From: Acidobacteriota bacterium
GTDB lineage: Bacteria; Acidobacteriota; Thermoanaerobaculia; Gp7-AA8
DNA: 64,000 nucleotides
Direction: 5' to 3'
NCBI GenBank assembly: GCA_039931435.1
Contig: JBDTRY010000001.1
Location: 11,084 to 75,083 of the forward strand
Under the pieces are notes generated by a model, which saw only the letters and a list, made by a program, of their open reading frames with translations, was not told the DNA's origin and did not search any database. Made by a program: the position numbers and the translations under genes. Positions 34,933 to 58,168 of this stretch are shown in pieces (positions within the stretch are counted from its first letter, which is position 1; every line of letters starts with the position of its first letter).

Positions 34933-37512
34933 TCAGCCGGCGATAGCAGCGGGCCGCCGTCGTCCCATCAGCCCGTCGAACTCGGGATCCTTGTCGATTT
35001 GCCACGAAGGATACCCCGCTTCTTTCGCTTTCCGGAGCCAGTCCAGCGCCGCTTCCCGCTTGCCGGCGATGGTGGAGACCACAGCTTCGGCGTAGAAGTT
35101 CGTGGGGTCGGCCGGACTGATGGCAATGGCGCGGTCCGCATGCCGAACGGCGTCGTCCACCTGACCGATTTTGCTGAGGGACAGGGCCAGCACCGCGTGC
35201 GCCTGTGCATCATTGGGATTGACCTTCAAAGCATCGTTGGCAAGGGCCACCGCCTTTTCATACGTCGTCGCCGCTTTTGTTTTCAGGGCCGGAGTCCAGC
35301 GGTAGGCGTCGGCGAGATTCAGCCAGAGCAGGTAGTCTCTCGGCGAGAGTTGGACGGCCGTCTCCAGCGATTGCGCGGCAGCCCCAAAGCGACCGAGCAG
35401 GTAGAAGCAGAAGGCACGGTTGGAGAGGGCGTCGGCGTTCGCTTCGATTCTGATGGAATGCGAATAGGCTTCCAGCGCATCCTCAACCTTTTCCCGCGAC
35501 AGATAGACGTTCCCCAGCTGGAGGTAGCCCCGTGCGTTATCGGGAGTGAGACGGGTGACGGTCTCGAACATCTTCGTCGCTTCGTTGAGATTTCCCTGTT
35601 TGGCGTAGAACACACCCAGCCTGCTGTAGCCTCCCCAGAACCCGGGACGGAGAGCGATGGCCCGTTCGTACATTTTCCGGGCCTCGTCGGAATCGCCGTG
35701 CGCTTCGTAGGCCTGGGCAAGGCCGATGGTGGCCTGGGGCGAATCCGGCGACTGCGACAGGGCCCGTCTGAATTCATCGATGGCCCGCTGAGTATTCCCC
35801 GTGGCCAGACTGAGCTCGCCACGCGTGGAGCTGACTTCGGAGTTTGCCGGGTCGAGTGCCGCAGCCCGGTCAGCCTCGCGCAGGGCCACCTGCGCAGCGG
35901 CAGGATCGTGGGAGAGGTTGTATCGATAGAGAAAAGCGCGGCCCAGGGCGGCATGAAGGAGCGCTGAACGTTCAGCCTGCGGCGACATGTTCTGCAGCAG
36001 GCGGATGGCTTCGTCGACCGAGTCGGCGCGCTCGTAGCGCTGCAACAGACCAATGGCGCTGAGATACCGCTGCTGATCGTCAGCATTCTCCAATCCGGTT
36101 GTCGGCTGGCGGACGGCGTTCTGCACATTGAGATCGAGAGCGTCCACCACTCTGTCCGCCAGACGATCCTCGAGCGCGAAGATGTCTGTGTCCGGTCCCT
36201 GTACGGTGGCACCGGCGATACTCCCCCGCTCGGGGTGCACGAGCATGTAGGTGATGCGAATCTGCCCGTTCGAGCGCTGCACCGTGCCCCGCAGAATGAG
36301 ATTCGCACCGAATTCTGTGGCGATCTTACCGAGGTCGGTCTCATCGCGAACGGACGATGTCACGGACGCGGGCATGACCTGAATGCCGGGAAGCCCGGCC
36401 AGGCGCGCGCTGACCGTCTCCGAGACGCCGTCGCTGAATAGCTGACCTCCGGGCTGGCCGCTCAAGTCCTTGAAGGGCAGCACCGCCAGATATTTTCTGT
36501 CCGGAATCTCCTGGGTCTGTGCCTCATGAATTCCCAGCCAGGCCAGCGCGGCCAGCGCGGCGGCGATGAGCACTCCGCCGAAGACGAGACGGGGAGTTTT
36601 CCCGGCCGGTACTCGCAAGCGAGTCGAGGCGGCGCGGGGCTGCGTCGGTGATGGAAGATGCTGCAAAGATTTCTGAAGATCGCGCGTCAGGTCGGATGTC
36701 GAACCATACCGGTCTTCAGAACGCTTGCCGAGCAGCCTCTCGATGATCCAGCAGAGGGTCTCCGGAACCTGGCGGTTGATCTGCTGAATGTTCGGCGGAT
36801 CTTCGCGCATAACCGCGGATAGCGTTTCGATGGTCGTGGCCCGTTGGAAGGGACGCAGTCCTGTGAGCATTTCGAAGAGAATCGTCCCCAGTGCGAACTG
36901 GTCGGTTCGAAAATCGACGGGATCTCCCACGGCCTGTTCCGGCGACATGTACCCCACCGTTCCCAGGATCGTTCCCGGTTCGGTGATGCGTTTGGACAAG
37001 CGCGCCGTATCGTCGCCGTGCTCGGGACTCTCATCGAGCTTGGCCAGGCCGAAATCGAGGATCTTCACTGTCCCGGCGGCACCAACCATGAGGTTGTCCG
37101 GCTTCAGATCGCGGTGAACGATTCCGCGGGCGTGGGCCACGGCCAGTCCCTCGCTGACACAGATGGCAATCTCCAGTGCGCGCTTCACCGGCATCGGCGC
37201 TTCGTGGTCGATGATCTTGTGAAGGCTCTCCCCTTCCACGAGCTCCATGACGATGAACGGTTGGCCGCTGGTGCGTCCCACGTCGTAGATGGTGACGATC
37301 GAGGGATGGGAGAGCATCGATGCGGAACGGGCTTCGCGCTCGAAGCGCTGATACAGTTCCGAATCTTCGGTGACCGTGGAGGGCAGGACCTTCAAGGCCA
37401 CTTTGCGGCCGAGGTGCGTATCGCGGGCGCGATAGACCTCCCCCATTCCTCCGGAACCGATCAGGTCGAGGATCTCGTAAGGGCCGATGTGGGAGCCCGG
37501 TTCCATTGTCAT
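34933..37512 (-). CDS. Ser/Thr protein kinase (Hanks-type) with a transmembrane segment and a C-terminal TPR-repeat domain (859 aa).
   Basis: GSGGMGEVYRARD...KVALKVL, HRDLKPDNLMV, DFGLAK, GTVGYMSPEQ. Hydrophobic LVFGGVLIAAALAALAWL. C-terminal half rich in TPR-like A/L/Y repeats. Confidence 0.88.
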   Translation of the reverse strand: MTMEPGSHIGPYEILDLIGSGGMGEVYRARDTHLGRKVALKVLPSTVTEDSELYQRFEREARSASMLSHPSIVTIYDVGRTSGQPFIVMELVEGESLHKIIDHEAPMPVKRALEIAICVSEGLAVAHARGIVHRDLKPDNLMVGAAGTVKILDFGLAKLDESPEHGDDTARLSKRITEPGTILGTVGYMSPEQAVGDPVDFRTDQFALGTILFEMLTGLRPFQRATTIETLSAVMREDPPNIQQINRQVPETLCWIIERLLGKRSEDRYGSTSDLTRDLQKSLQHLPSPTQPRAASTRLRVPAGKTPRLVFGGVLIAAALAALAWLGIHEAQTQEIPDRKYLAVLPFKDLSGQPGGQLFSDGVSETVSARLAGLPGIQVMPASVTSSVRDETDLGKIATEFGANLILRGTVQRSNGQIRITYMLVHPERGSIAGATVQGPDTDIFALEDRLADRVVDALDLNVQNAVRQPTTGLENADDQQRYLSAIGLLQRYERADSVDEAIRLLQNMSPQAERSALLHAALGRAFLYRYNLSHDPAAAQVALREADRAAALDPANSEVSSTRGELSLATGNTQRAIDEFRRALSQSPDSPQATIGLAQAYEAHGDSDEARKMYERAIALRPGFWGGYSRLGVFYAKQGNLNEATKMFETVTRLTPDNARGYLQLGNVYLSREKVEDALEAYSHSIRIEANADALSNRAFCFYLLGRFGAAAQSLETAVQLSPRDYLLWLNLADAYRWTPALKTKAATTYEKAVALANDALKVNPNDAQAHAVLALSLSKIGQVDDAVRHADRAIAISPADPTNFYAEAVVSTIAGKREAALDWLRKAKEAGYPSWQIDKDPEFDGLMGRRRPAAIAG

Positions 37513-39486: not shown

Positions 39487-40980
39487 TCAGGGCCCGGGCT
39501 TCTGGCGCGATTCTGCAACTGCCACCACCACCGGTCCCGCAGAGAGGATGGGGTGCAGTGTAAATTGCACACTGAGGGCACGCTGTTCGTCGGAGCCCAG
39601 CTCTCCAATCCAGAAAAACCGGGCCCCGGCGGCGTCCGGCAACGAAGCGGCCTCACCGGCCAGTTCGGAAACGGGCTGGCCCGCTTCCCGCCAGCCTGGA
39701 TGGCGCTGCTGCCGCGAGGGAAAGGTCAGCACTTCAGGGGACCATCGCCCATCGCGCTGGCTGATCACTTCGAGATATTCGAGGCCGGAAACGACGATCG
39801 TTGATCGCTCCGGCAGTCTGCGTCGGGCCGACTCAGCGATGAGCCGGTACGGGTGATCCGGGCGGGAACGGTGCTCGAGGACGCCGGTGTAGATCGAATA
39901 GCCACCCGTTGCCACAAAGACACCGACGAGCACAGAGCGCAGTAGCTGCGGAAGCTCACGAAGCGAGAAGGCAAGCCAGAGCATCAAAGGCACGGCCAGT
40001 ACCGATTCGAATCGCAAAGGGTAGTACATCGTTTTGCCGGCCAGGGCGCCAATCGCTGCAATAAGCAAGGGAGTGAGAGTCATGACTCCGAAGAGGCGCG
40101 CTTTCATGCTTCGCATCGACCCGATCATCACTACGGCGGCAACGGCCAGGAGAGAAATCATCTGGATCCAGACCGCCGGCGGCGGCAGAAAGACGGCGGG
40201 AAACGGAGCAGCAAACCCGAGATGGCGCAACTCCGTAAGGACGAGGCCGGGGCCGGACTGTTCGGAGGCCATCCAGCGGATGGCATCATGGGGCTGCCGC
40301 GAGGCCAGCCAGAAAAAGGGACTGTAGGCCACCCCGACGAGAAGAGACCCGGAAAATGCGTCCCGAATCATGCCTTCTCTGCGCACCAGAAGGGCAACGA
40401 CGAACGGTACGGCAAGAAAGAGCACTCCGTAGTAGTGACAGCAGGCCGCCAGAAAAAAACAGGCGAACGATGTGACGAGCGAACCTCTGGATCCGGTTTC
40501 GGTCCAGCGATGCACTGCCAGGACGCCGAAGGCCACGAGCATTCCACAAAGTGCATAGGCTCGTGCTTCGGTCGCAAAGTACACGCTGGCGGGAAAGAAC
40601 GACAGGAGCACGGCGGCGATCCATCGCGACTCTTTCAGCCGTTTTGTGCTCAGAACGGCCAGCACTGAAAGGAACGAGAACAGAAGCGAGACGAGCCTGA
40701 GCGTCGGCACCTGGGCGATGCTTGAATCCGTTCCGCGAAGGAGGTGCACCGGAAGCGCAACGATCCAGTAATAGAGCGGCGGACCCGAGTCCCCAAGCAG
40801 CGCGCGCACGATACCGCCCGGAGAGCGGCGCGCGATCCACACCGTGAACAGCTCATCGAAAAATGGGGAACGGACGTAGCACAACATCAGGCGCAGCGTC
40901 AGGAACACCAGCAGGATGAGGACGGCGGCGGCGAGAAAGGCCGTCTTCTCCCGCCGCGAGCCGCTGACGGAAGTGGTCAC
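39487..40980 (-). CDS. Polytopic membrane glycosyltransferase, GT39/ArnT (PMT_2)-like (497 aa).
   Basis: About 11-13 hydrophobic segments. Early-loop DELFT motif (the DE signature of GT-C ArnT/PMT-like enzymes). The start overlaps the cheY stop by 4 bp. Confidence 0.55.
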   Translation of the reverse strand: MTTSVSGSRREKTAFLAAAVLILLVFLTLRLMLCYVRSPFFDELFTVWIARRSPGGIVRALLGDSGPPLYYWIVALPVHLLRGTDSSIAQVPTLRLVSLLFSFLSVLAVLSTKRLKESRWIAAVLLSFFPASVYFATEARAYALCGMLVAFGVLAVHRWTETGSRGSLVTSFACFFLAACCHYYGVLFLAVPFVVALLVRREGMIRDAFSGSLLVGVAYSPFFWLASRQPHDAIRWMASEQSGPGLVLTELRHLGFAAPFPAVFLPPPAVWIQMISLLAVAAVVMIGSMRSMKARLFGVMTLTPLLIAAIGALAGKTMYYPLRFESVLAVPLMLWLAFSLRELPQLLRSVLVGVFVATGGYSIYTGVLEHRSRPDHPYRLIAESARRRLPERSTIVVSGLEYLEVISQRDGRWSPEVLTFPSRQQRHPGWREAGQPVSELAGEAASLPDAAGARFFWIGELGSDEQRALSVQFTLHPILSAGPVVVAVAESRQKPGP

Positions 40981-41351
40981 GTCTGAAGCAGGTCGGAGAT
41001 CGTTCGCACCAGCTGAGAAGACTGGATGGGTTTGGTGAGGTAGGCATTCGCTCCCAGGGCCATCCCCTTTTCACGATCTTCGTCGGCTCCTTCGGTGGTG
41101 ATGATGATGATCGGTATCTTGCCGAACTTGTCGCTCTGGCGAACGATGGAGACGAACTTCAGGCCATCCATCACCGGCATGTTGATGTCGGTGAGGATCA
41201 GATCGACCTTCGACTCCCCCAGCTTCTTCAGAGCATCCGCGCCGTCGACCGCTTCGATGATCTTCGCGTTACGGAAGCGCTTCAGGGAGAACGAGATCAA
41301 CTGCCGCATCGTCGGTGAATCTTCGACGATCAGAAAAACAGAATTGTCCAT
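40977..41351 (-). CDS. cheY: Single-domain response regulator (CheY-like receiver), 124 aa.
   Basis: FLIVEDSPTMRQL...DLILTDINMPVMDGL...AYLTKP receiver motifs. Confidence 0.85.
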   Translation of the reverse strand: MDNSVFLIVEDSPTMRQLISFSLKRFRNAKIIEAVDGADALKKLGESKVDLILTDINMPVMDGLKFVSIVRQSDKFGKIPIIIITTEGADEDREKGMALGANAYLTKPIQSSQLVRTISDLLQT

Positions 41352-41629
41352 CGCTGACTACCCGCCCTTCGAAGATCGCGCCGCTGTCGTCACAGAATGC
41401 CGGAAGAAACCAGGAGCCGCCCGAACACCGGCAACGACCCGGCGGGAATTCCACGACTTTGTGCACTCCCGGACGCTGAAGCGAGGGTTCGTACGGCTGC
41501 GCTTCCCTCGACCTTTCCGGAAGTGAATCGCCCCAGCCGAGCTCCGGGATGCCATCGAGAAAACCCCGCGTCCGGGACCTTCAATATCAAGGCCTCGAAT
41601 GTAGCACAAGGACCGAGGGCCACAAAGTT

Positions 41630-42682
41630 TCATTCCTCGTGACAGAGACGATTGATCGCCGCGGTAATTTCGTGGAGAGGCAGCACGTGCTGCACCGCTC
41701 CCGTTCCAATGGCACCTCGGGGCATTCCAAAGATGATGGCCGTTTCCGCGGATTCGGCAATCGTCTTTCCTCCTCTGCCGCGGACAGTGCGGATTGCTTC
41801 GGCACCGTCCGCACCCATTCCGGTGAGAATGATGGCCAGCACGCGCTCGGCGCAGGCCCGGCTGGCGCTCTCGAAAAGCCGGTCGACCGACGGAGCGTAA
41901 AGATCGCCCTCCGCCGGTTCGTATATATCGAGCATCAGCCCGGCGCCATCCCTTCTGACCTCGGTCTGCATGCCACCGGGAGCGACGTAAACCGTTGCGG
42001 CACGGAGGCGTTCGCCATCCACACCTTCCTTGACCGTGTAGGAACTTATCCGATCCACCCGTTCCGCAAACAAGCGTGTGAATACCGCGGGCATGTGCTG
42101 GGCTACGACGAACGGCACATTGATGCGAGGAGTACGCTGAAACAGCGTCTGCAATGCTGGAGGTCCTCCGGTCGAAGCTCCGATGACGACGACATCCACG
42201 AGGAGTTTTAGCCCGCTCTCGGCCTGAGGGGCGAGCGGTAGCCCGGATGCCTGCATGCGCGCGGCAAGATTGTCGAGACGTACGTCGTGAGCCGCTCGAA
42301 CCTTCGCCAGAAGATCCTCACGAACCTCCTCGAGTCGTGGAGAGATCGGTCCTCCCGGCTTGACGATAAATTCGGCTGCGCCCAGCTCCAGAGCCTTGAA
42401 TACGGATTGCGCATCCGCTCTCGAGGACACGGCAATGACCGGCGTCGGTTGATTGGCCATGAGCCAGCGCAGGAATCCGAACCCGTCGATGCCTGGCATC
42501 TCGATGTCCAGAGTGATCACATCCGGTGTATGACGAAGGGTCTGCTTGATCCCCGATTCGCCATCGGCAGCGGTGGCCACGACCTTCACCTCGCCACTCG
42601 ACTCCAGCAGTCTGGAGATCGTCACTCGGTTGAAGGCGGAGTCGTCAATGACAATGGCGCGAATCATCCGGCGTTCGATCAT
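41630..42682 (-). CDS. cheB: Chemotaxis response regulator protein-glutamate methylesterase CheB (receiver + CheB methylesterase).
   Basis: N-terminal receiver (AIVIDDSAFNR...LDIEMPGIDG). C-terminal VVIGASTGGPPAL and HMP motif regions. Confidence 0.9.
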   Translation of the reverse strand: MIERRMIRAIVIDDSAFNRVTISRLLESSGEVKVVATAADGESGIKQTLRHTPDVITLDIEMPGIDGFGFLRWLMANQPTPVIAVSSRADAQSVFKALELGAAEFIVKPGGPISPRLEEVREDLLAKVRAAHDVRLDNLAARMQASGLPLAPQAESGLKLLVDVVVIGASTGGPPALQTLFQRTPRINVPFVVAQHMPAVFTRLFAERVDRISSYTVKEGVDGERLRAATVYVAPGGMQTEVRRDGAGLMLDIYEPAEGDLYAPSVDRLFESASRACAERVLAIILTGMGADGAEAIRTVRGRGGKTIAESAETAIIFGMPRGAIGTGAVQHVLPLHEITAAINRLCHEE

Positions 42683-43533
42683 CCTTTCTGGTAAACCATA
42701 TCGTGCTCAAGGTGACGAAGCCGGAACTGAGTGGAGAGGGTGATCAGGGACTCGGAATGACCGAGAAGCAAATAGCCGCCCTCGCCGAGCCGTTCGTGAA
42801 AGCTGGCAATGACACTGCGCTTGGAGGCATCATCGAAATAGATAATGACGTTGCGACAGAAAATGATGTCCACCGTGCCCACCAGCGACACCCGTGGATG
42901 ATCGTAAAGGTTGAGCCGCCCGAATGACACCCGTTTGCGGATGGCGTCGGAGATCTGCCAGGTGCCGTCCGGCTCTCTGACGAAATACTTCTCGCGCAAC
43001 TCTGGGGTCGTAGCTCTGAACGAGTTCTCGCGATAGCGGCCCTTTCGCGCCCGAGCCAGAACCTGCTGGTTGATGTCGGAGGCAAAAATCTCGAAGGAAC
43101 CACGCTCGTAGTGACCGTGCTCGGTCAGAAGCATGGCGATGGTGTAGGGCTCCTCACCCGAGGAGCAGCCGGCCGACCAGATTCGCACCTTGCGTCCCCG
43201 GGCTCTGGACAGCACTTCCGGAACAATCTCCAGGGCGAAGGCCGAGAGCTGCATCGATTCACGGAAGAAGTAGGTTTCGTTCGTGGTGATCTGGTCGAAG
43301 ATCCGATCGAATTCTCCATCGGCTCGCGGGTCGTACTGGAGAAAGTAGTAGTACTTCTGGAGGGTGTCGAAGTTCAGCTCGCGAGCGCGGGGGGAGAGCC
43401 GCTTCTGAAGCAGGTACTTCGAAGAATCGGCGAAGTAAATTCCGCTGCGGGCGTAGATGGCGTCGCGAAGCTGCCGGAAAACGTCGTCCGGCAGGTCCAG
43501 CTGATGGTTCAGGGTGAAGTCGAAGGCGCCCAT
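42679..43533 (-). CDS. cheR: Chemotaxis protein methyltransferase CheR.
   Basis: TNETYFFRE, RIWSAGCSSGEEPYTIAML SAM-binding motif. 4-bp overlap with cheB. Confidence 0.9.
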   Translation of the reverse strand: MGAFDFTLNHQLDLPDDVFRQLRDAIYARSGIYFADSSKYLLQKRLSPRARELNFDTLQKYYYFLQYDPRADGEFDRIFDQITTNETYFFRESMQLSAFALEIVPEVLSRARGRKVRIWSAGCSSGEEPYTIAMLLTEHGHYERGSFEIFASDINQQVLARARKGRYRENSFRATTPELREKYFVREPDGTWQISDAIRKRVSFGRLNLYDHPRVSLVGTVDIIFCRNVIIYFDDASKRSVIASFHERLGEGGYLLLGHSESLITLSTQFRLRHLEHDMVYQKG

Positions 43534-43554
43534 GGGAGTGTGGGAAAAGGAGAG

Positions 43555-45795
43555 TCAGTGCACCGAGGCGCTTTCTTTCATGGCCTGTAGAGTTGCAGCG
43601 ATGAGCGCTTCGTGCCGGCTGTCGGCGGTTCTCCATGCCTGCTCGAGCTGATCGCGGAACAGGTCTTTGCGGCGGACGAAGAGCTCGAGGATGTCGTCGA
43701 GGATGGAGCGATTCTCGAGTGCTCGATAGAGATAGCTGAAGGAGCTGCGATCGGCCAGTTTTCCCAGCGCTACCACCGCCGAGTGCTGAACGTATGTGTC
43801 GGCGTCGCCGACGAGCAAGGCGTGAATTTCCTCGAGCGCCCGTTCATCGCCGCGCTGGCCGAGGGCCAGAACGCCGGCGGCCCGCAAACGCCATTCGTCA
43901 GAATGCAGGCAGCGCAGCAGCTCACGGAAAATCTCGTCTCCGGGAATCCGGGACAGTGCCAGAATCCCGGCGCGGCGAATCTCCAGGTCTCGGGCATGAA
44001 GGCTGGAGAGCAACTGATCCGCGGCGCGCCGGCTGCCGATTTTTCCCAGCGCCTCGATGGCGGCGATCTTCACCGGAGCAGGATCGCTCTCGAGGTGCGC
44101 GATGAGGGGATCGATGGCCACCGGGTCCCGATACTCGCCCAGGGCGTTTGCCGCTGCCGTTCGAATCCAGAGATCCTCATCCTCGAGGGCGCTGATCAAC
44201 GGCTCGATCCCGTGACTGGGGCGCAACAGGACGATGGCCTGAATGGCAGCGATTCGCACCGAGGTCGCTTCGTCCGCCAGCGACAGCACAAGCTGATCAG
44301 CGAAACGCTCCTCGCTGAACCTTCCCATGAGCGAAACCGCCTTCTGACGGATGGCAGGGTCGCCATCCTTGGACGCCAGCAGCAGTTCCTGCGGAAATCC
44401 TTCTCCCTGGATGTTCACAAAGATCGAAAGCGAATTGACCTTCACCGGTGTGGTCCCGGCGGCCATCAGTCTGCGGATCTTCCCCAGTAATTGCGGCTTC
44501 ACCTGCGGAAAGGCAGCGACGAGGGCGCATACGGAATCCACCGCGGCCTGCTGACAACCGGGGTCGCCGTCGTCGAGCTTAGCCAGCAGGTAGTCGATTG
44601 CCGAGGGGTCGCCCAGTTGTCCCAGACTCTCCAGGGCCAGGCGGCGGATCATGGCACTGTCGTGATCGATGAAGCCAATCAGCGTAGGCACCGCTTCGTT
44701 GCCGGCGGTCAGGTTGACGACCCGAAGGAGAATGGCCGTCACCTCGTCCTCTTCCGTCGAACGCAGCTTGTTCAGAACAGACATCGATGCCGCGGGTCCG
44801 AAGTCGACGAGCGCCTGAGCCACGACCTCCGCGCTCTCCGGATCCTCGAGGGAGTCGAGCAGAACGGGTACAGCGCGATCGTCGCCGGTCCACCCCAGGA
44901 TCTGGAGGATGAAGTTCTTTACGTCGCGCTTGGGAGTGGAATGGAGATGCTCGACGAGCGGCACGATCTTCTCGCTCGGAAACGCTTCACGAAACTTGCG
45001 CTGAATCAATTGCCTTTCCATTGCCTGGACGATGCGAGGCTTGTCCGCTTCAGCGACTCGAATCAGGGCTCGCAAAGCGGTGAGGTTCAGTTTCTCTTCC
45101 TGGGAAATGATTCTGAGAAGAAAGCTGACTGTTCCCACGTCTCCGATCTTGGAGACCGCTTCGAGAATCGGCTTTCGCAGCGACTTCTCCGAATACAGGG
45201 GAAGAATGGAAGGCAGAGCCGTGCGATCTCCAATCTCGCCAAGAGCCTCGATCACGTGGAACTTCAGCCAGAGGTCCGGTGACTGCAGTGTCTCCAGCAG
45301 CGGGCCGATGGAACTGGCGCGGCGGTACTTGCCCACCGACGACACCACGGCCGAGAGAAGATTGATGTCCGATTCTTTTCGCAGGAACGCCAGGAGTGTT
45401 TCAAAACCGTCGTCGTTCCGCAGATCGCCCAGAAGATTGATCAGGGCCAGACGTACGTCGACGTCATTTCCCCGGCCGAGCTCGAAGATAATGAATGGCA
45501 CCGCTCCGTCACCCACCCTGATCAATGCCTCGGTTGCGGAATTTCTCTTTCCGGCATTGGCGGGGTCGTGCAGAGAATGAAGAAGGCGCAGCAACACTGT
45601 TTCCCGGGGATTGCTGAGAATTCCATCCACGACGGTTTTTCGCACGCGCCAGTCGCGGTCGCCCAGCAGTTCGAAAAGCAGAGGGAGATCCTCGTCCGTC
45701 ATCGAGCCGGCCACCTGCATGGCGGCCTTCTGACGCACGTCGGCGTTCGCCGATCGCGCCCGCTCCTGCACGTGCCCTTCAACGCTCATCGACAA
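43555..45795 (-). CDS. HEAT-repeat (PBS-lyase-type) protein, 746 aa, embedded in the Che-like cluster.
   Basis: Reiterated ...DWRVRKTVVDGIL..., ...DPSAIDYLLAKLDDGDPGCQQAAVDSV..., ...RIAAIEALGKIG... HEAT/PBS-lyase-like units throughout. Confidence 0.7.
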   Translation of the reverse strand: MSMSVEGHVQERARSANADVRQKAAMQVAGSMTDEDLPLLFELLGDRDWRVRKTVVDGILSNPRETVLLRLLHSLHDPANAGKRNSATEALIRVGDGAVPFIIFELGRGNDVDVRLALINLLGDLRNDDGFETLLAFLRKESDINLLSAVVSSVGKYRRASSIGPLLETLQSPDLWLKFHVIEALGEIGDRTALPSILPLYSEKSLRKPILEAVSKIGDVGTVSFLLRIISQEEKLNLTALRALIRVAEADKPRIVQAMERQLIQRKFREAFPSEKIVPLVEHLHSTPKRDVKNFILQILGWTGDDRAVPVLLDSLEDPESAEVVAQALVDFGPAASMSVLNKLRSTEEDEVTAILLRVVNLTAGNEAVPTLIGFIDHDSAMIRRLALESLGQLGDPSAIDYLLAKLDDGDPGCQQAAVDSVCALVAAFPQVKPQLLGKIRRLMAAGTTPVKVNSLSIFVNIQGEGFPQELLLASKDGDPAIRQKAVSLMGRFSEERFADQLVLSLADEATSVRIAAIQAIVLLRPSHGIEPLISALEDEDLWIRTAAANALGEYRDPVAIDPLIAHLESDPAPVKIAAIEALGKIGSRRAADQLLSSLHARDLEIRRAGILALSRIPGDEIFRELLRCLHSDEWRLRAAGVLALGQRGDERALEEIHALLVGDADTYVQHSAVVALGKLADRSSFSYLYRALENRSILDDILELFVRRKDLFRDQLEQAWRTADSRHEALIAATLQAMKESASVH

Positions 45796-45931
45796 CCACG
45801 TCTGCTGATCGATAGTGTGAAGAAATCGCCGGCCGCTTTGGAGGAATGGTCCGAGCTGCCGAAAGCAGACGGGCCTGCACCGGGAAAGCGATCAGTGGAG
45901 CGCACCTCCGGAGATTCAATGGCCATGAACA

Positions 45932-46651
45932 TCAGTTCTCATCCTGCAGAACGCGGTCCACGTTCAGAAGCATGATCAACTCCCCCTCCCGCCGGAATAC
46001 GCCCCGGATCCTGCCACTCTGCTCTGCCGAAATAAGCGCCGGTTCCTGCCGGGTCTCGGAACTGCTCACTGAGGTTACCCTTCCGATGCGGTCGACGATG
46101 AACCCTGATCGTCCGGCTATCTCTTCCACGATGAGAAAGCGGGAGTCCGAACTCTGCCTTGCCTCCCGGTGGCCAAGCCTGCTGCTGACATCAAGAATCG
46201 TCACGATTGTACCGCGCACGGAGATGATCCCCAGCACGTCAGGCCGGGCGTTCGGGACGCGAGTGATCTCGCGGGGCTCCATGATCTCGGCGATGTCCGA
46301 GACCGGGAGCGCAAACTGCTCGGTCCCGATCATGAAGGTCAGGATTTCCATCTGGTCACTCGAAGTCTCGGAGGCCACCTCGACGTCGGCGATCGCCGCC
46401 GCCCGGGCCTGGCGCGCCAGGACGTCCTGCTTGAAGCGATCGAGGCGGGACACGGGCTGCGGCTCGATCTGTGATTGTTCGACCTCCGGCTTCGTCGATT
46501 CCTTCGATTTCACAGGCGATAACGCAGCAGATCGGGATGGCTCGACGGGCTCAGAGGAACGTGACGATGACGGGAGCGCAGAGGCCGCAGCTGCCGCATC
46601 GCGCTCTTTCTTTTCGCGGGCCTTTTTCCGGATCTTTACGAGATCGACCAT
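45932..46651 (-). CDS. cheW: CheW-like coupling protein with a roughly 110-aa low-complexity N-terminal extension.
   Basis: EILTFMIGTEQFALPVSDIAEIMEP...VLGIISVRGTIVTILDV...LLNVDRVL CheW-domain motifs. Confidence 0.75.
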   Translation of the reverse strand: MVDLVKIRKKAREKKERDAAAAASALPSSSRSSEPVEPSRSAALSPVKSKESTKPEVEQSQIEPQPVSRLDRFKQDVLARQARAAAIADVEVASETSSDQMEILTFMIGTEQFALPVSDIAEIMEPREITRVPNARPDVLGIISVRGTIVTILDVSSRLGHREARQSSDSRFLIVEEIAGRSGFIVDRIGRVTSVSSSETRQEPALISAEQSGRIRGVFRREGELIMLLNVDRVLQDEN

Positions 46652-47466
46652 CAGCGATCCTCCTTCGCTCCGAGGCGGTGCTCGGCCGCGGAAGATCGGA
46701 TCCGTGCTCGATCGATGTTCGTGGCATCGTCACCGAAGGCATCGAGGAGCGCGGTCGTGGCCACGGCGTTGATCAGTCGGGGAACACCTCCGGTAAGGCG
46801 ATGAAGGAGATCGAGTGCTTCCGCTTCAAAGGGATTTCTGCTCCCGCCCGCCACGCGAATGCGGTGATCCACATACTTCGCGGTTTCGTCGGGTTCCAGG
46901 GCGTGAAGCCGGAAGCGGATTCCAATTCGTTGCCGCAGGGCCTCGTATTGGGGACGGTCCAGGCGGTCATCGAGTTCGGGCTGTCCGATGAGAACGACTG
47001 ACATCAGATTCTGATCGTCGAGCTGAAAGTTCGTCATCAATCGGATCTCGTCGAACGCGGCCCGGCCCGGGATGAGTTGCGCTTCGTCGATGATCAACAA
47101 GGGATGGCGGTCCTGCTCGTGCAATTCGTAGAGGCGTTCGTGGATGCGGTCCAGCAATGCGGCACGCGTACGATCGGCGGGCAATTCCAGCCCCGAGGCG
47201 ATGGCGCGCAGAAGCTGCGCTGGAGTGAGACGAGGGTTGATGAGGAGGATAACGGGGCGCGAGTCGCCGACCCTGTCCACCAGAGCACGGGAAATGGTCG
47301 TTTTCCCGCATCCGATTTCTCCGGTGAGAAGAGCGAGCTCATTTTCCTCCACGGCGTACTCGAGCCGAGCCAGCGCCTCTCGATGCTGTCCGGTCTCGTA
47401 CAGAAAAGAAGGGTTCGGGGTTTTTCCGAACGGCTTTTCCCTGAATCCGAAGAACTCGCAGAACAG
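46651..47466 (-). CDS. ExeA/GspA-like AAA ATPase (AAA_22); start uncertain. The track ORF begins at a GTG at 47352, but homology extends upstream to a CTG at 47466 immediately after the cheA stop.
   Basis: GEIGCGKTT Walker A, LIIDEAQ Walker B. Upstream in-frame sequence LFCEFFGFREKPFGKTPNPSFLYETGQHREALARLEYAV matches the canonical ExeA N-terminus (M..FFGL.EKPF..TPDP.F....HREAL) as I recall it. No ATG/GTG/TTG lies between the in-frame TGA (47472..47470) and this region. Confidence 0.6.
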   Translation of the reverse strand: MFCEFFGFREKPFGKTPNPSFLYETGQHREALARLEYAVEENELALLTGEIGCGKTTISRALVDRVGDSRPVILLINPRLTPAQLLRAIASGLELPADRTRAALLDRIHERLYELHEQDRHPLLIIDEAQLIPGRAAFDEIRLMTNFQLDDQNLMSVVLIGQPELDDRLDRPQYEALRQRIGIRFRLHALEPDETAKYVDHRIRVAGGSRNPFEAEALDLLHRLTGGVPRLINAVATTALLDAFGDDATNIDRARIRSSAAEHRLGAKEDR

Positions 47467-47469
47467 ACT

Positions 47470-49461
47470 TCACCTCCGGGAGACCGCGGTTCGACTTTCA
47501 CGCCGCGCCGTTCGCGCTTCCGCCAGGCCGGAGACGAGAGAGGCGACGTCGACGACCAGGGCGATCTGGTTTTTCCCGATCTCCGTTGCTCCGGCAATTC
47601 CGGGAATGCCCCGAATGCGATTACCGACCGCCCGGATCACCACTTCCTGTTGCCGCACGACTTCATCGAGCACCAGTCCGGCCAATCGATCGCCGAGACG
47701 TACCACGGCAACGAACTTTCTGCCGTTCTGTGAGGACGCTTCGACTCCGTAGGCGTCGGAGAGACGGAGGAGCGGAATCTCCGCATCACGCAGCGCCAGA
47801 ATTTCCCGGCCTTCGACAGTTGTGATCTCTTTCTCCTGGATCTTCACCACCTCGCTGATCGACGTCAGAGGAAGGGCGAAGGTCTCGTTTCCGACACGCA
47901 CCAGCAGTGCGTGCAGGATGGCCAGAGTGATGGGTAGTGTCAATCGAATCGTCGTTCCACTTCCCCGATCACTGAGCACCTCGATCGAGCCCTTCAGCTC
48001 GTGAATATTCTTGCGCACCACGTCCAGACCCACCCCTCGGCCGGACACCTCGCTCACCGCCTCGGAGGTGGACAGGCCCGGCGAAAAGATCAGTTCGCGC
48101 GCTCTCTCGAAATCGACGACCTCATCCTGGCCGATGAGATTGCTGCGAACGGCGGAGCGGCGAACGGACTCCACGTCGATTCCCTCGCCGTCGTCCGAGA
48201 TATCGATGATCACGAAGCTTCCCTGCTGGTAGGCTCGTATACGCACTTCCCCTTTCACGGGCTTTCCTGCCGCCACTCGCTTCTCGGAGGTCTCGATCCC
48301 GTGATCGATGGCGTTGCGCACGACGTGCATGAGGGGATCGGCCAGTTCTTCGATCATGACCTTGTCCAGCTCAGTCTCGCCGCCGGCGGTGAGCAGTTCG
48401 ATTTCCTTCCCCAGCTCTTCTGCTGCCTTGCGGGCCGCTCTTCCCACACGCGTGTAGAGCTGTGAGATCGGAACCATCCTCAGGTCGACGATGGCACGCC
48501 GGAGTTGATTCAGTCGCCGCTCGAGATCTCCGGAGATGCGTCCCAGCTCCCGAGCGGTTCTTCGGTCCAGGGAGGATCCGGATACGGCAATGAGCTCGTC
48601 CAGTCTGGCTTTTTCCAGGATCAACTCCCCGACAACATCCATGACGTTATCCAGCCGGGAGATATCTACGCGGACGTTCTGCGACAAGGAACGAATGCTG
48701 GCCAACCCCTCTTCGCCGTCGGGTGAGCGAGGTTCCGGAGCAGACTGTAAGAGACGAACCTGTGCCTCCGGCGAGAGCGCCACCAGCTCTTTCCCGGAGA
48801 GGAGCGCTCCGACCAACAGCCGAAATCCGATTCCCGCTCCCGCGGCGGTGGGCAGAGTGGAGATGACCTCGCCTTCGGCGTTGAGGCGCGCGGTCAGGGC
48901 CCGCAGTTTCTCGTCGAAGTCCAGAAAGTCGTACTGGACCGTGAGCGAAAAAATGCTTCGGCCGATCCGCACATTTTCCTGGAGTCTGTATTCCTCATAT
49001 TCGGTCAGTGACTTGCGCGTCTGGGCATCGAGATCAAGGCCGGCGAGCAGATCGGCCTTTTTGCCAGTGGGATCCCCGGCGGCCGCCCTTTCGATCCTTT
49101 CCAGGATCTCCCTTCGCTCCCCGGTCTCCGCTCCGCTGGAAGCTGCCGAAACCATCCGTATCAGTTCGGCGTGGCAATCGAGCAACAGCGCGAGAAGTTC
49201 GGACGAGACCTGCACCTTGCCAAGACGAAGGCGGTCCAGAAGATCCTCGAGTTGGTGAGTGAGCGTTGCCAGACCTGTGAAGCCCAGCATTCCTGCCAGC
49301 CCCTTCAGAGAATGGATGGCGCGGAAGATATCGTTGATGATGGCCGGACTTACCGTGCCCCGTTTTTCATCGAGCTCGGCGAGATCAACGGCAAAGGACT
49401 CGAGCAGCTCTTCGGCTTCGGATGTGAATTCGCGCCGGGCCCGCTCCTCTTCTTTCTCCAT
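47470..49461 (-). CDS. cheA: Chemotaxis histidine kinase CheA.
   Basis: Hpt (AIHSLKGLAGMLGF), dimerisation, HATPase (DDGEGID, GRGVGLDVV) and C-terminal CheW-like domain. Confidence 0.9.
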   Translation of the reverse strand: MEKEEERARREFTSEAEELLESFAVDLAELDEKRGTVSPAIINDIFRAIHSLKGLAGMLGFTGLATLTHQLEDLLDRLRLGKVQVSSELLALLLDCHAELIRMVSAASSGAETGERREILERIERAAAGDPTGKKADLLAGLDLDAQTRKSLTEYEEYRLQENVRIGRSIFSLTVQYDFLDFDEKLRALTARLNAEGEVISTLPTAAGAGIGFRLLVGALLSGKELVALSPEAQVRLLQSAPEPRSPDGEEGLASIRSLSQNVRVDISRLDNVMDVVGELILEKARLDELIAVSGSSLDRRTARELGRISGDLERRLNQLRRAIVDLRMVPISQLYTRVGRAARKAAEELGKEIELLTAGGETELDKVMIEELADPLMHVVRNAIDHGIETSEKRVAAGKPVKGEVRIRAYQQGSFVIIDISDDGEGIDVESVRRSAVRSNLIGQDEVVDFERARELIFSPGLSTSEAVSEVSGRGVGLDVVRKNIHELKGSIEVLSDRGSGTTIRLTLPITLAILHALLVRVGNETFALPLTSISEVVKIQEKEITTVEGREILALRDAEIPLLRLSDAYGVEASSQNGRKFVAVVRLGDRLAGLVLDEVVRQQEVVIRAVGNRIRGIPGIAGATEIGKNQIALVVDVASLVSGLAEARTARRESRTAVSRR

Positions 49462-49462
49462 G

Positions 49463-49840
49463 TCAGGTAGTCACCCCCAACAGCTTTCTCAGTTTCTCCA
49501 GCAGGTCACGCTCCTGAAATGGCTTGACCAGATAATCCTCGGCGCCCAGTTCCATGGCCCGGCGGCGGTCTTCCTCGGACTTTTCGGTGGATATAACCAT
49601 GATGGGGACGGTACGGTAGACGCCGTGATTTTTCAGAAAGCTGACCAGCTCCAGCCCATTGATGTCCGGCATGTTGATGTCGGTAAGGATTGCGCTGAAG
49701 GCATGGTGCGGGAGGAGTTTCAGTGCTTCGAAGCCGCTCTCCGCCTCGAAGATTTCCAGGTCCACCATGGCCTCCTGTTCGATGAGATTCGTCAGGAAAG
49801 CGCGCATCGAAGGTGAGTCCTCAACGACCAGTATCTTCAT
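49463..49840 (-). CDS. cheY: CheY-like single-domain response regulator (125 aa).
   Basis: KILVVEDSPSMRAF...AILTDINMPDINGLEL...DYLVKP. Confidence 0.9.
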   Translation of the reverse strand: MKILVVEDSPSMRAFLTNLIEQEAMVDLEIFEAESGFEALKLLPHHAFSAILTDINMPDINGLELVSFLKNHGVYRTVPIMVISTEKSEEDRRRAMELGAEDYLVKPFQERDLLEKLRKLLGVTT

Positions 49841-51546
49841 AACAAATCCTCGTGACGGCCCGAGCGCAACCTCGTCCCCGATTCCAGAGCCCGCCCGGCC
49901 TGTGAGAGGAAAACCTCGAGGGCTCCCAGCTCACGCATTGGACTCCTGTGTACACCATTGTCTCCATAAAAGACTCCGGCCACACCCTCTCCCGTTCCTA
50001 TGGGAAAAACGGCCACGTCGGTCGGTTGCGCGCTCCCAAGTTGCGAAATGAGCGTGACATTGGCCTCCGTCCGGTGAAGCTTCCCACGGTGTGAGCGGCC
50101 CGAAGCTAGCACTTCGCTGAGGACGGAAGGATCGGATCGGGCAATCCTGAGCTTTCGTACCCGTTCGTTGACTTCATCGCCATCGCCTGAGGGTCCGAAG
50201 CCGGCCGCCCCGACAAAGAACTGCCCCTCGGGCAGAAACACCGCGCCGCGATCGAGGAACTCGCTGGCCACCCGCAGAAGGATCTGCGCCACCGACTGCA
50301 CGTCCTGATCGGCCGTCAACTCCGTGATCAGACTCTCGAGGAGCGAGCAGCGCCGCTCCATGAGGTCGTGCCGGGCATCCTCGAAGAATCTCTGTCCGGC
50401 ATCCTCCACTCCGGCCGTCAGCAGGTAGTTCGCCCAGTCCGACATCGCCGTGGCAACGAAACCCGACAAACGCTGCAGAAGTGCGGAGGGATCGGCCCAT
50501 GCTGACTCGGATTCAGGGACGACCAGATCCAGGTGCGGGTCGAACATGGGAATGGCCGCGGCCACTTCAAAGTCTCCGAAGAGAATGCCAATGGGCAGAC
50601 GGTGATTCGCCTCCTTCACCAGTCGCAGAAGGCCGACCGAACGTCTGTCGTTCTGCACATCGGCCACGGTGACGAAGTAGCGGCGGTCGTCGATCAGTCT
50701 CTGGATCTCGGCCCGCGCCTCATCGATGGCCGAAAACTGCCGTACTTCGGTACCGCCGGCCGACAGCGTTCTGCGCAATGCCACGCGGATGCGTGCGTCG
50801 GGCTCGAAGACGACCACCGCCGCGCCTGCACCGGCGTTCTGCTGGCGCACGGTGAAGCGGGCCTCTCCAATCAGCGCTCCGGTACTGGGGTCGACGTAGG
50901 CATCGGCGGGCTTTGCCGGAGGCGCTTCGGCCGAACGGGATGCACTGAAAATCCGGTCGGCGAAGGAGTTCTCCTGATGAGCGGCGTCCGTGCGAGGGGA
51001 AGGCCCCCGCAGAAAATCGCTTCCGGCGCGCATCCGCTCTTCGAGCCCGGCCAGCGGTTTGACTTCGGGAGCGGCCAGAAAATGCTGGGGCGCAAAGCCG
51101 CCGGAGGGAAGCCGCTGCTCGTCGTATTCCAGTTCGTCCGCGCCACCCGACTCGGAGAGGACGAACCTGAATTCGCCTCGGGCCGAAGCCAGCAGAGGAG
51201 TGACTACCGACGAAATCCAGCTTTCGATCGCCTCCGCAGGGGCCAGCTCCGGATCCTCGTTCTGGCCGTGGGCACGGAGGAAGCTCCTCAGATCGGCACG
51301 ATCCGAAGCACCCGCGGCGACAATCAGCCCCCTGGAGATGGTGATTGCAGAGAGCCGCTCCCCGTCGCGAATCTCCAGGGTCCCGGAGCGGCGACTGAGG
51401 TGAACGATCTGAAGGATGTCCCCGAGAGAAAGATCCTCGAGCCGGCCGGCGAGGCTCATCCCAGTCTCCCGGAAGCCGCTCGCCACCACGCCACAAGATT
51501 CACCCGATCCCCCAACTCGACTCGGACTGAAAGGCAGCTGTCCCAT
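49837..51546 (-). CDS. DUF4388 (PATAN-like) domain protein with a long C-terminal region of unknown function, 569 aa.
   Basis: N-terminus LEDLSLGDILQIVHLSRRSGTLEIRDGERLSAITISRGLIV is typical of DUF4388. 4-bp overlap with the preceding cheY. Confidence 0.5.
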   Translation of the reverse strand: MGQLPFSPSRVGGSGESCGVVASGFRETGMSLAGRLEDLSLGDILQIVHLSRRSGTLEIRDGERLSAITISRGLIVAAGASDRADLRSFLRAHGQNEDPELAPAEAIESWISSVVTPLLASARGEFRFVLSESGGADELEYDEQRLPSGGFAPQHFLAAPEVKPLAGLEERMRAGSDFLRGPSPRTDAAHQENSFADRIFSASRSAEAPPAKPADAYVDPSTGALIGEARFTVRQQNAGAGAAVVVFEPDARIRVALRRTLSAGGTEVRQFSAIDEARAEIQRLIDDRRYFVTVADVQNDRRSVGLLRLVKEANHRLPIGILFGDFEVAAAIPMFDPHLDLVVPESESAWADPSALLQRLSGFVATAMSDWANYLLTAGVEDAGQRFFEDARHDLMERRCSLLESLITELTADQDVQSVAQILLRVASEFLDRGAVFLPEGQFFVGAAGFGPSGDGDEVNERVRKLRIARSDPSVLSEVLASGRSHRGKLHRTEANVTLISQLGSAQPTDVAVFPIGTGEGVAGVFYGDNGVHRSPMRELGALEVFLSQAGRALESGTRLRSGRHEDLL

Positions 51547-56514: not shown

Positions 56515-56739
56515 TCAGGCCAGATCTGCGAGCTTGTCGAGAATTTCCTGTTCGCTGGGGAATCGCCCTTCGTCATGTTTCGAGAAGATTGTCGTCCCGC
56601 CTGATTCGACCCTGAATACGCCGCCGCGGCCACGGGTCAGGGTAGCATCCACATCGAATTTCTTTTTGATCGCGGCCGCCAGACTGGAGGCTCTCGGGTA
56701 GTAGTTTCAAACGACGCAGTATTCGATCTGGACGTTCAC
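56515..56739 (-). CDS. SelW/Rdx-family selenoprotein (74 aa) with an in-frame UGA (Sec) codon at 56709..56707. Invisible to the ORF track.
   Basis: GTG at 56739 (GAGGAG 6 nt upstream; GTGA overlap with the PP2C stop) gives MNVQIEYCVV-U-NYYPRASSLAAAIKKKFDVDATLTRGRGGVFRVESGGTTIFSKHDEGRFPSEQEILDKLADLA*. The IEYCxxU...GGVF.V..G..IFSK...GRFP pattern is the SelW-like/Rdx signature with Sec in the CxxU redox motif. Confidence 0.65.
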
Positions 56740-57506
56740 GCGTTCTCCTCGATCATTCGCACCACCACTGCGGTGATGTTGTCATATCCGCCGTGTTCGT
56801 TCGCCGAATCGACAAGTTGACGGCAGGCCGTCTGGAGATCCTCAGCCCCGGATACGATCTCCAGAATCTCCCGTTCGGAAACCATGCCGGTCAATCCATC
56901 CGAACAGAGAATGTACAGATCGCCGGCCAGGCATTCTATCTCCCGCACTTCGGGGAGCACCTGAAGCGACCCGCCCAGGGCCCGGGTGATCACATTGCGT
57001 AAGGGATGATGCTGCGCTTCTTCCTCGGTGAGGATGCCAGCCTCGATCTGTTCGAAGACCCAGGAGTGATCGTTCGTGACCCGCGACAGTTTGCCATCCC
57101 GAATCAGATAGCCGCGCGAGTCACCGAGGTGAACAAACGAGGCAACTTTGCCGTTGACGCCTGTGGCCACGACGGTCGTTCCCATGCCTCGCAAGGCCGG
57201 GTCCTGACGCATGGCCTCGAGGACCTTCGTGTTGGCAAGCTGAAAGGCCGCCAGAAGCCGGTTCGTACAGCGGCTCAGGGTCTCATCGTAAGCGTGGGGC
57301 CAGGTGCCGTCGGCATCCTCGTCCGGCTGGACCATGAAGTCCGCAATGGAGTCCACGGCAATTTTCGAGGCGACCTCTCCTGCGGCATGACCTCCCATGC
57401 CGTCAGCGACGACGAAGCATTGCGCCTCCGGTTCGACCCGGAAGGAGTCCTCGTTGTGCTGGCGCTGTCTGCCAACGTCACTAAGTCCGAACGCCTCGAT
57501 CCGCAT
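56736..57506 (-). CDS. PP2C-family Ser/Thr protein phosphatase (256 aa).
   Basis: LSDVGRQRQHNEDSF...VVADGMGGHAAGEVAS...GDSRGYL...LCSDGL PP2C motifs. Confidence 0.88.
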   Translation of the reverse strand: MRIEAFGLSDVGRQRQHNEDSFRVEPEAQCFVVADGMGGHAAGEVASKIAVDSIADFMVQPDEDADGTWPHAYDETLSRCTNRLLAAFQLANTKVLEAMRQDPALRGMGTTVVATGVNGKVASFVHLGDSRGYLIRDGKLSRVTNDHSWVFEQIEAGILTEEEAQHHPLRNVITRALGGSLQVLPEVREIECLAGDLYILCSDGLTGMVSEREILEIVSGAEDLQTACRQLVDSANEHGGYDNITAVVVRMIEENA

Positions 57507-58159: not shown

Positions 58160-58168
58160 AGTCCCTAA

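Follow-up and report, generated by a model that had tools for sequence, protein, structure and literature searches.

The 64-kb window analysed here (the whole stretch of DNA that was studied, from contig JBDTRY010000001.1 of an uncultured Acidobacteriota bacterium of the class Thermoanaerobaculia) carries on its minus strand, between 39487 and 51459, ten co-directional and tightly packed genes. We consider that they probably form one operon for a non-flagellar chemosensory pathway of the "alternative cellular function" (ACF) type, with a distinct architecture that extends across phyla; the ACF type was inferred solely from the context and the missing flagellar genes. According to the listing of open reading frames (ORFs) and their Pfam domains, the order from 5' to 3' is PATAN, CheY, CheA, ExeA-like AAA+ ATPase, CheW, HEAT, CheR, CheB, CheY and GT-C glycosyltransferase. 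Apart from a receptor, what defines a Che pathway is present, namely a CheA with Hpt, P3, P4 and P5 domains, a CheW, two CheY-type receivers, and both CheR and CheB. A preliminary description, made from the letters of this DNA, had given the same gene content and order, and all ten genes were found at or near the places it named, with strong domain matches. The full architecture would run from a PatA-type PATAN protein through CheY, CheA, the AAA+ ATPase and a CheW with an N-terminal extension ("CheW-Next"), then in some clusters one or more methyl-accepting chemotaxis proteins (MCPs) and a second CheW, to HEAT, CheR, CheB, in some clusters a coiled-coil GAF protein, and a final CheY. The form in the window appears to be trimmed, without the MCP, the second CheW, the GAF gene and a Zn-ribbon receiver gene of its relatives, and with a Thermoanaerobaculia-specific GT-C gene at the end.

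The conservation of this layout was investigated by tblastn of the window proteins for synteny. A scan of GTDB species representatives gave 398 relatives of the AAA+ ATPase, and the best 80 were all from Thermoanaerobaculia/Acidobacteriota. The loci examined (L001-L082) share the layout LysM-amidase, ribH, nusB, PATAN, cheY, cheA, AAA, cheW, HEAT, cheR, cheB, cheY and GT-C. Counting for each gene only the loci long enough to show it, CheW (73/73), HEAT (63/63), CheR (62/62) and CheA (67/68) were almost universal; CheB was found in 45 of 58 loci, the cluster being split after cheR in some genomes, and GT-C followed the second cheY in 23 of 32. The preliminary description had left room for HEAT and AAA genes that are not conserved in orthologous clusters, and we found both in essentially every orthologous cluster examined. 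Its view that the HEAT, AAA and PATAN genes are operonic parts of a non-canonical che pathway is supported by their conserved positions and tight junctions. The first cheY (REC1) and cheA are 1 nt apart, the AAA gene begins 3 nt past the cheA stop and shares 1 nt with cheW, and the ORF coordinates reproduce the three 4-bp overlaps and the 278-bp gap described earlier (table 1).

The architecture was also found outside the class. Metagenome contigs were scanned with an alignment of short outgroup AAA proteins and their flanks were tested, HEAT and MCP being counted where at least 7 kb lay downstream. The named members of the nearest short AAA clusters are Thermodesulfovibrionales (Nitrospirota), "Deltaproteobacteria bacterium" and "bacterium BMS3Abin14". 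When the AAA protein was 44-60% identical to that of the window, CheA lay upstream in 40/40 cases and CheW downstream in 32/38, with HEAT in 17/21 and MCP in 12/21. Relatives below about 44% identity are not che-linked (CheA 0/5, CheW 0/6, HEAT 0/1, MCP 0/1). In such outgroup versions the AAA-linked cheW and the HEAT gene are separated by genes for one or two MCPs and a second CheW. On one 374-kb contig (L088) the Pfam order is DUF4388 (373 aa), CheY, CheA, AAA, N-extended CheW (242 aa), MCP (835 aa), plain CheW (158 aa), HEAT (657 aa), CheR, CheB, coiled-coil GAF and CheY, with no glycosyltransferase after it. Its MCP (11566-14073) has HAMP and MCPsignal domains followed by a C-terminal phosphonate-binding periplasmic-binding-protein domain, which we regard as an unusual receptor architecture. 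Taken together, the AAA and HEAT genes appear to be core parts of a che architecture found across several phyla, and the GT-C gene appears to be an addition specific to Thermoanaerobaculia.

Another outgroup contig, from a groundwater metagenome (L110), has the order DUF4388+GAF, CheY, CheA, AAA, CheW-Next, then three genes, two MCPs and CheW. The three genes (8933-12858) encode a multihaem c-type cytochrome, an MtrB/PioB-like outer-membrane porin and an ABC substrate-binding protein, which hints that the che cluster is linked to extracellular electron transfer in that lineage.

Table 1. Positions of the che operon genes and their junctions in the 64-kb window, listed in the direction of transcription.
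Feature	Position	Strand	Details
PatA-type regulator (PATAN)	49837..51459	-	540 aa; Pfam DUF4388 2.9e-12; mechanical ORF (569 aa) extends to 51546
PATAN/cheY junction	49837-49840	-	4-bp overlap
CheY-like single-domain response regulator REC1	49463..49840	-	125 aa; Response_reg 4.6e-30
CheA histidine kinase	47470..49461	-	663 aa; Hpt 1.6e-14, H-kinase_dim 1.2e-10, HATPase_c 4e-18, CheW 4e-26
GGAGG Shine-Dalgarno-like sequence in the end of cheA	47473..47477	-	6 nt upstream of the AAA CTG start (read from the sequence)
ExeA/GspA-like AAA+ ATPase, cytoplasmic-only	46651..47466	-	271 aa; AAA_22 2e-24; CTG start
CheW with N-terminal extension (CheW-Next)	45932..46651	-	239 aa; CheW 2.2e-31, domain residues 102-238
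Large HEAT/PBS-lyase-type repeat protein	43555..45795	-	about 745 aa (746-aa ORF); start TTG 45795 or ATG 45789
CheR methyltransferase	42679..43533	-	284 aa; CheR 1.6e-60, CheR_N 3.7e-13
cheR/cheB junction	42679-42682	-	4-bp overlap
CheB methylesterase with N-terminal receiver	41630..42682	-	350 aa; CheB_methylest 1.3e-56, Response_reg 6.6e-23
Intergenic gap, cheB to second cheY	41352-41629	.	278 bp; coiled-coil + GAF gene here in most relatives
Second CheY-like single-domain response regulator REC2	40977..41351	-	124 aa; Response_reg 3.6e-28
cheY (REC2)/glycosyltransferase junction	40977-40980	-	4-bp overlap
GT-C-fold polytopic membrane glycosyltransferase	39487..40980	-	497 aa; AF2 + Foldseek

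The AAA+ ATPase and the extended CheW

The AAA+ gene begins in an uncommon way. We read the CTG at 47466-47464 as a real start, so that the gene has 271 codons and not 233, because of the spacing of the GGAGG sequence, the conserved N-terminus, the starts of the orthologs and the recurrence of the arrangement in a sibling contig. The CTG lies in the same frame as the cheA stop (TGA, 47472-47470), and a conserved ExeA-type N-terminus (FCEFFGFREKPFGKTPNPSFLYETGQHREALARLEYA) is encoded directly after that stop, in frame with the AAA ORF. The orthologs begin MFCEFFGF at exactly the position of the CTG, although with other start codons (ATG in 76, GTG in 3 and ACG in 2 of 81 related loci). The sibling contig, L166, shows the same GGAGGTGA..CTG arrangement at 72% nucleotide identity to the window. 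The 233-aa product annotated by NCBI (GTG start 47352) is probably 38 residues short, and the gene would thus be mis-annotated in the public record owing to its CTG start. A read-through fusion of CheA across the TGA into the AAA protein, conceivable for two ORFs in one frame, was considered and rejected as the main reading: relatives have separate genes with ATG starts that often overlap out of frame, and the GGAGG is ideally spaced.

The gene sits tightly between cheA and cheW, and in most loci stop and start codons overlap at these junctions; in many of them the cheA stop overlaps the AAA start (ATGTTTGA). Overlapping codons of this kind along cheA, AAA and cheW are typical of subunits of one complex, and the AAA protein is likely to be translationally coupled to CheA and CheW-Next. 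Its Walker A (GEIGCGKT) and Walker B (IIDEAQ) motifs are present and the chain stops at residue 271, immediately behind the AAA+ lid; no transmembrane segment, peptidoglycan-binding domain or C39-like domain was found in it. The AlphaFold2 (AF2) model has a mean predicted local distance difference test score (pLDDT) of 88.6, and its nearest folds are ORC/Cdc6, MuB and TnsC (TM-score up to 0.76), which are AAA+ proteins known for ATP-dependent oligomerisation and for recruiting partners, and not known to unfold substrates.

More than 7,000 close homologs of about 270 aa exist; the best 120 are 67-73% identical, and the named ones among them are from Thermoanaerobaculia/Acidobacteriota. An exhaustive profile search put the protein in the very large ExeA/GspA superfamily, with 28,633 cluster representatives at E<=1e-3. 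The nearest of these are short (265-287 aa, 42-56% identical) and are followed by long proteins of 500-700 aa with PG_binding_1 and GspA_C39-like domains. With ExeA/GspA, MshM and the XrtA/PEP-CTERM ATPase (TIGR03015) the window protein shares the AAA_22 domain, the N-terminal FFGL..PF..PDP.FLY motif and a full-length match to TIGR03015 (positions 2-258 of 269). However, the extended protein scores 216.9 bits against a curated cut-off of 324.5, and its subfamily is linked to cheA and cheW rather than to gspB/exeB, type II secretion system (T2SS), MSHA, pilus, exopolysaccharide or PEP-CTERM genes. Since it has neither a transmembrane segment nor the GspA_C39-like and PG_binding_1 domains, lacks linkage to secretion genes and falls under the TIGR03015 cut-off, the protein does not count as a secretion ATPase of the ExeA/GspA kind.

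The product of the next gene, CheW-Next, is the sole CheW of the window cluster. It opens at the N-terminus with a conserved basic peptide (MVDLVKIRKKAREKKE), continues with a disordered linker of low complexity (about 85 residues) and closes with the CheW domain, so that about 100 low-complexity residues stand ahead of that domain; the linker is variable and rich in P, E, A and S. The peptide pattern M-x-D-L/I-x-K-I/L-R-K-K was found in 60 of 61 AAA-adjacent CheWs, from the window, other Thermoanaerobaculia and outgroups, against a background of 2 in 292 ORF segments of the window. The second CheW of L088 does not have the extension.

This pair resembles ParC/ParP of Vibrio and Pseudomonas in that an NTPase is encoded in a che operon beside a CheW-like protein with an N-terminal segment, a long linker and a C-terminal CheW domain. 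In Vibrio, the N-terminal domain of ParP binds the ParA-type ATPase ParC, and beyond a proline-rich linker its C-terminal CheW-like domain inserts into the array (PMC5706961). The likeness to ParP is limited to architecture, and CheW-Next matches the ordinary Pfam CheW model. Moreover, ParC and PpfA are ATPases of the ParA/MinD type, whereas the window ATPase is an AAA+ protein of the ExeA/ORC/MuB/TnsC type; because its ATPase belongs to a different class, the window system is not ParC/ParP. PpfA of Rhodobacter sphaeroides is an array-positioning ATPase of that ParA/MinD type, likewise encoded in a che operon.

Output, receptors and the trimmed lineage

The first gene of the operon appears to be of PatA type, because its orthologs carry PATAN in 28 of 28 cases and also Response_reg (PF00072) in 25 of 28, and PF00072 stands in the precomputed annotation of many homologs. 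The encoded protein contains a PATAN domain at its N-terminus (DUF4388, PF14332; 47.1 bits against a cut-off of 25), a degenerate receiver-like middle and a weak GAF-like C-terminus (GAF_2 5e-5, under the cut-off). In the window copy the middle domain has no Pfam match and aligns weakly to a receiver (REC) profile by hhalign (E 3.7e-4, 45 columns), and a helical insertion of about 27 residues present in most orthologs is missing. Alignment with 27 orthologs places the start at M30 (MSLAGRLEDLSL), in agreement with the 540-aa call of NCBI, and the gene most likely begins at 51459, not 51546. The adjoining REC1, about 75% identical across Thermoanaerobaculia, has the motifs VVEDS, TDINMP, ISTE and VKP, which appear to fit the usual active-site pattern of receivers (the residue assignment is our own), and this first CheY would work with the PATAN protein.

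To our knowledge, neither AAA nor HEAT proteins belong to the cyanobacterial Tax/Pix or Pseudomonas Pil-Chp systems of the type IV pilus (Tfp) class, which the window cluster resembles in having a PATAN regulator and then a single-domain CheY at the operon head, with orthologs of PATAN-REC form. In contrast to that class, however, the PATAN protein here carries an additional GAF-like part at its C-terminus and, in the window, a degenerate receiver. The CheA is neither hybrid nor multi-Hpt and a PilJ/PixJ-type receptor is absent from the cluster, and therefore the window system is probably not Tfp-class. As the cyanobacterial PATAN domain is an output domain that binds PilB1 and PilC, and PATAN also occurs together with GspE_N domains (bioRxiv 10.1101/2021.06.11.447907), a pilus- or secretion-type ATPase is a reasonable candidate for the PATAN target; no gene for one was seen near the PATAN protein in domain scans of the 64-kb window.

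These observations bear on a reading in which the AAA protein acts like ExeA, GspA or MshM in the assembly of a T2SS or type IV pilus (T4P) and is an output of the pathway, the whole being a divergent Tfp-type cluster that controls twitching or secretion through PATAN. The full-length match to the ExeA/PEP-CTERM-ATPase model, homologs named "type II secretory pathway ATPase ExeA", the known partners of PATAN and an operon start that resembles pilG-pilH and pixG-pixH all fit it. Nevertheless, the AAA protein lacks the membrane and peptidoglycan-binding parts of the long ExeA/GspA relatives, the CheA is not of the ChpA/PixL type, and no T2SS, T4P or secretin gene occurs in the window or among the called genes of locus L001. 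The position of the AAA gene between cheA and cheW, with overlapping codons, points instead to a partner of the core complex, and we consider the pilus or secretion reading unlikely.

The signalling core itself is complete. The P1 Hpt, P3 dimerisation, P4 HATPase and P5 CheW-like domains of CheA are all over the Pfam cut-offs, its phosphorylation motif HSLKG is present and it has no C-terminal receiver. REC2, with the motifs IVEDS, TDINMP, ITTE and TKP (again assigned by us), is about 77% identical across Thermoanaerobaculia and 55-65% in outgroups. Across the class, sequence identity is about 72% for CheR and about 61% for CheB. CheB scores 344.6 bits against NF001965 (cut-off 293), and in an alignment to 1a2o the motifs for its catalytic Ser164, His190 and Asp286 and its receiver Asp56 (1a2o numbering) are unchanged. 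As CheB keeps its Ser/His/Asp residues and both enzymes are highly conserved, a methylated substrate should exist, most simply MCPs encoded elsewhere.

The preliminary description called the cluster receptor-less. As to the window this holds: no MCP, flagellar or pilus domain was detected by domain scans in any large ORF of the 64 kb, and tblastn with the signalling domain of Tsr, a working control that picked up MCPs in related loci, gave no match in it. But receptor-lessness is a derived state of the window lineage, and outgroup versions carry MCPs. Because related clusters in other phyla do so, the window cluster is best described as a reduced member of a receptor-coupled family, and not as receptor-less in principle.

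It is conceivable that in Thermoanaerobaculia, after the loss of the MCP, the pathway became independent of receptors, with the HEAT protein, the Zn-ribbon receiver or CheW-Next as both input and substrate of CheR and CheB. A gene for a Zn-ribbon plus receiver stands between cheW and HEAT in 68 of 71 loci, exactly at the MCP position of the outgroups, no MCP occurs near the cluster in about 80 species, and yet CheR and CheB remain highly conserved. However, the window lacks even the Zn-ribbon-REC gene, and no substrate of CheR and CheB other than MCPs is known to be established. MCP genes are also often dispersed away from che clusters, as noted for Geobacter (PMC2577667). We therefore regard a receptor-independent pathway as quite unlikely.

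The HEAT protein was likened in the preliminary description to the Che7 system of Myxococcus xanthus. Che7 is a che cluster not concerned with motility, which encodes the HEAT-repeat protein Cpc7, a single-domain CheY, its own receptor Mcp7 and the desaturase Des7; it is not known to include an AAA or a PATAN protein. The analogy stands in so far as both clusters combine a HEAT protein of the PBS-lyase type with a single-domain CheY (HEAT_2 1.4e-73 over nine stretches, HEAT_PBS 5.4e-34; the NblB and CpcE models match under their cut-offs). By Pfam, the window cluster has neither an MCP nor a desaturase domain, and the system cannot be called Che7-like beyond sharing the HEAT protein. The latter is about 61% identical across Thermoanaerobaculia and 25-29% in outgroup clusters; since 61% is high for a repeat protein, it suggests several binding partners, and by analogy with Cpc7 the protein might be a scaffold or a target of CheY.

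An ordinary flagellar chemotaxis operon, with receptors and flagellar genes elsewhere and the extra genes as passengers, could account for the complete set of CheA, CheW, CheY, CheR and CheB. On the other hand, the extra genes are positionally conserved across phyla with overlapping junctions, no flagellar gene was found in the 64-kb window or among the called genes of L001, CheZ, CheC, CheD, CheX and CheV are all missing from the cluster, and two CheYs are accompanied by a PatA-type regulator. This makes a flagellar operon very improbable.

Considering the missing genes, the intergenic regions were compared. In addition to the Zn-ribbon-REC gene, a coiled-coil + GAF gene, kept in outgroups too, lies between cheB and the second cheY in 41 of 51 loci (in L001 the two genes occupy 11569-12432 and 18372-19175, respectively). 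The spacing between CheB and REC2 has a median of 928 bp in relatives; at 282 bp (tblastn coordinates), that of the window is the shortest. No remnants of the GAF or the Zn-ribbon-REC gene were detectable in the intergenic gaps of the window. Both genes are missing from a sub-lineage formed by the window and the contigs L165 and L166. L166 aligns collinearly with 12 kb of the window at about 72% nucleotide identity and shows the same short gaps, and L165 has the same short PATAN form at 69% protein identity. Since the layout and the CTG start recur in L166 and the short PATAN form in L165, the trimmed layout is taken to be a maintained variant of this lineage and not a one-off decay. A decaying, non-functional remnant, to which the loss of the MCP, the second CheW, the GAF gene and the Zn-ribbon receiver, the CTG start confined to this lineage and the undetectable REC domain of PATAN might point, is hardly credible given ten intact ORFs, CheB active-site residues in place and long-term maintenance of the trimmed features (GGAGG and CTG included) in L166 and L165.

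L166 contains many fragmented genes, probably frameshifts from long-read assembly.

The glycosyltransferase and the surroundings of the operon

The last gene of the operon encodes a protein without any Pfam match (even at E<=5), NCBIfam match or PDB sequence match, a search of the PDB with its family profile included. An AF2 model based on 61 homologs (pLDDT 94.1) gave 23 PDB matches at E<=1e-3 in Foldseek, and those listed are all GT-C proteins, namely STT3, PglB, ArnT, DPY19, ALG9, AftD and Pmt4 (best E 2.7e-8; ArnT 5ezm with a query TM-score of 0.61). The earlier label "GT39/ArnT-like" is thus right as to the ArnT-like fold, but no sequence model gives membership in GT39, PMT or PMT_2, and none reproduces the NCBI name "glycosyltransferase family 39 protein". 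With ArnT, PglB/STT3 and PMT the protein shares a predicted multi-helix membrane domain, a C-terminal alpha/beta domain and a conserved FFDE stretch near the N-terminus (F40 and D42 invariant, F41 and E43 nearly so in the 61 sequences), which may be catalytic and lie in the first extracytoplasmic loop. It differs from them in having no family match at the sequence level and in belonging to a small family that is restricted to Thermoanaerobaculia: only 217 homologs were found, and 1 of the 120 listed has PF13231. The proposed coupling of the che genes to this enzyme is upheld within the class by the overlap with cheY and the 23 of 32 loci, but not in the outgroup L088, where the gene is missing. 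From this adjacency, an envelope-glycosylation output through the second CheY is hinted at in Thermoanaerobaculia. A REC-glycosyltransferase fusion (P0124) was rejected; its sequence is corrupted both at the junction and at the C-terminus, and it comes from L166, whose probable frameshifts gave rise to the apparent fusion.

A promoter/terminator scan of the 278-bp gap gave no signal above chance, and Rfam and tRNA scans of the window gave no matches. The flanking genes are housekeeping genes, with ribH, nusB, a LysM-amidase and gatCA upstream and DinB, saccharopine dehydrogenase and a Ser/Thr kinase with TPR repeats downstream. Genes for Ser/Thr-phosphorylation signalling stand around the che cluster on the minus strand, namely FHA + Trans_reg_C (30258-30875), Pkinase + TPR (859 aa, 34933-37512) and a PP2C phosphatase (56736-57506). 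Cell-envelope and shape genes occupy 57512-63992, including DnaJ-TPR, RodZ (HTH_25 + RodZ_C), a Wzy_C O-antigen-ligase-like membrane protein and UDP-GlcNAc 2-epimerase. Elsewhere in the window, a single minus-strand ORF of 5521 aa (10469-27034) has LVIVD repeats, Big_6, a beta-propeller and several CarboxypepD_reg-like domains and is presumably a giant surface or adhesin-like protein, and positions 1-10000 of the plus strand hold eight ORFs of 150-450 aa with zero Pfam matches, which may be genes of unknown families or shadow ORFs.

Proposed mechanism and significance

We hypothesize that receptors encoded elsewhere in the genome would feed CheA through the single CheW and be adapted by CheR and CheB, and that CheA would phosphorylate both CheYs and CheB. 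The target of the second CheY may be the glycosyltransferase translated together with it, or the cell envelope. The AAA+ ATPase would bind the N-terminal peptide of CheW-Next, and its ATP-dependent assembly would nucleate, stabilise or position the signalling array, the job that ParC with ParP does in Vibrio and PpfA in Rhodobacter, here carried out by an unrelated ATPase. We hold the binding of this peptide, with ATP-dependent assembly, stabilisation or positioning of the array, to be a serious though still tentative possibility.

Several points weigh against this scheme. The functional statements all come from genomics and structure prediction. The contact between the ATPase and the peptide was proposed from adjacency and from analogy with ParC and PpfA, which are ParA-type and not AAA+ proteins; the basic peptide could equally bind the membrane, DNA or another partner, and since the nearest structural neighbours of the ATPase act on DNA, its activity may be a different one. 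As to the receptors, the loci of about 80 related species (about 20 kb each) all showed no MCP up to about 10 kb from the AAA gene, and none was located for the window organism in the 64 kb of its genome that the search covered. Finally, the link to the glycosyltransferase could be mere operon packing, and the PATAN protein of the window has a degenerate receiver and is without the helical insertion.

Chemosensory arrays are a textbook model of large signalling assemblies, and the dedicated factors for their placement or construction that are known to us are all ParA-type ATPases (ParC with ParP, and PpfA). The literature search, which most subscription journals lay outside, yielded no account of a che cluster that includes an ExeA-like ATPase, so that a prior description is possible. 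Neither an AAA nor a HEAT component is mentioned in the papers on CheA and CheW architecture or in the survey of Geobacter che clusters (PMC2577667). A chemosensory system that combines an AAA+ ATPase, a HEAT protein and a PatA-type regulator is thus seemingly undescribed.

A bolder proposal, which we make with considerable reserve, is that the AAA+ ATPase and CheW-Next constitute an unrecognised, non-ParA module for array assembly or positioning in Acidobacteriota, Nitrospirota and others, and that Thermoanaerobaculia dispensed with the in-cluster receptor and possibly with any canonical one. If this is true, a second, unrelated ATPase family lies between cheA and cheW in hundreds of uncultured species, and the assembly or positioning of arrays would have been solved more than once. 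It would also give a testable function to a large, poorly understood cytoplasmic branch of the ExeA/GspA family. Moreover, the cluster provides a defined set of partners (PATAN, HEAT and GAF) for finding what non-motility che pathways control in abundant bacteria of soils and sediments.

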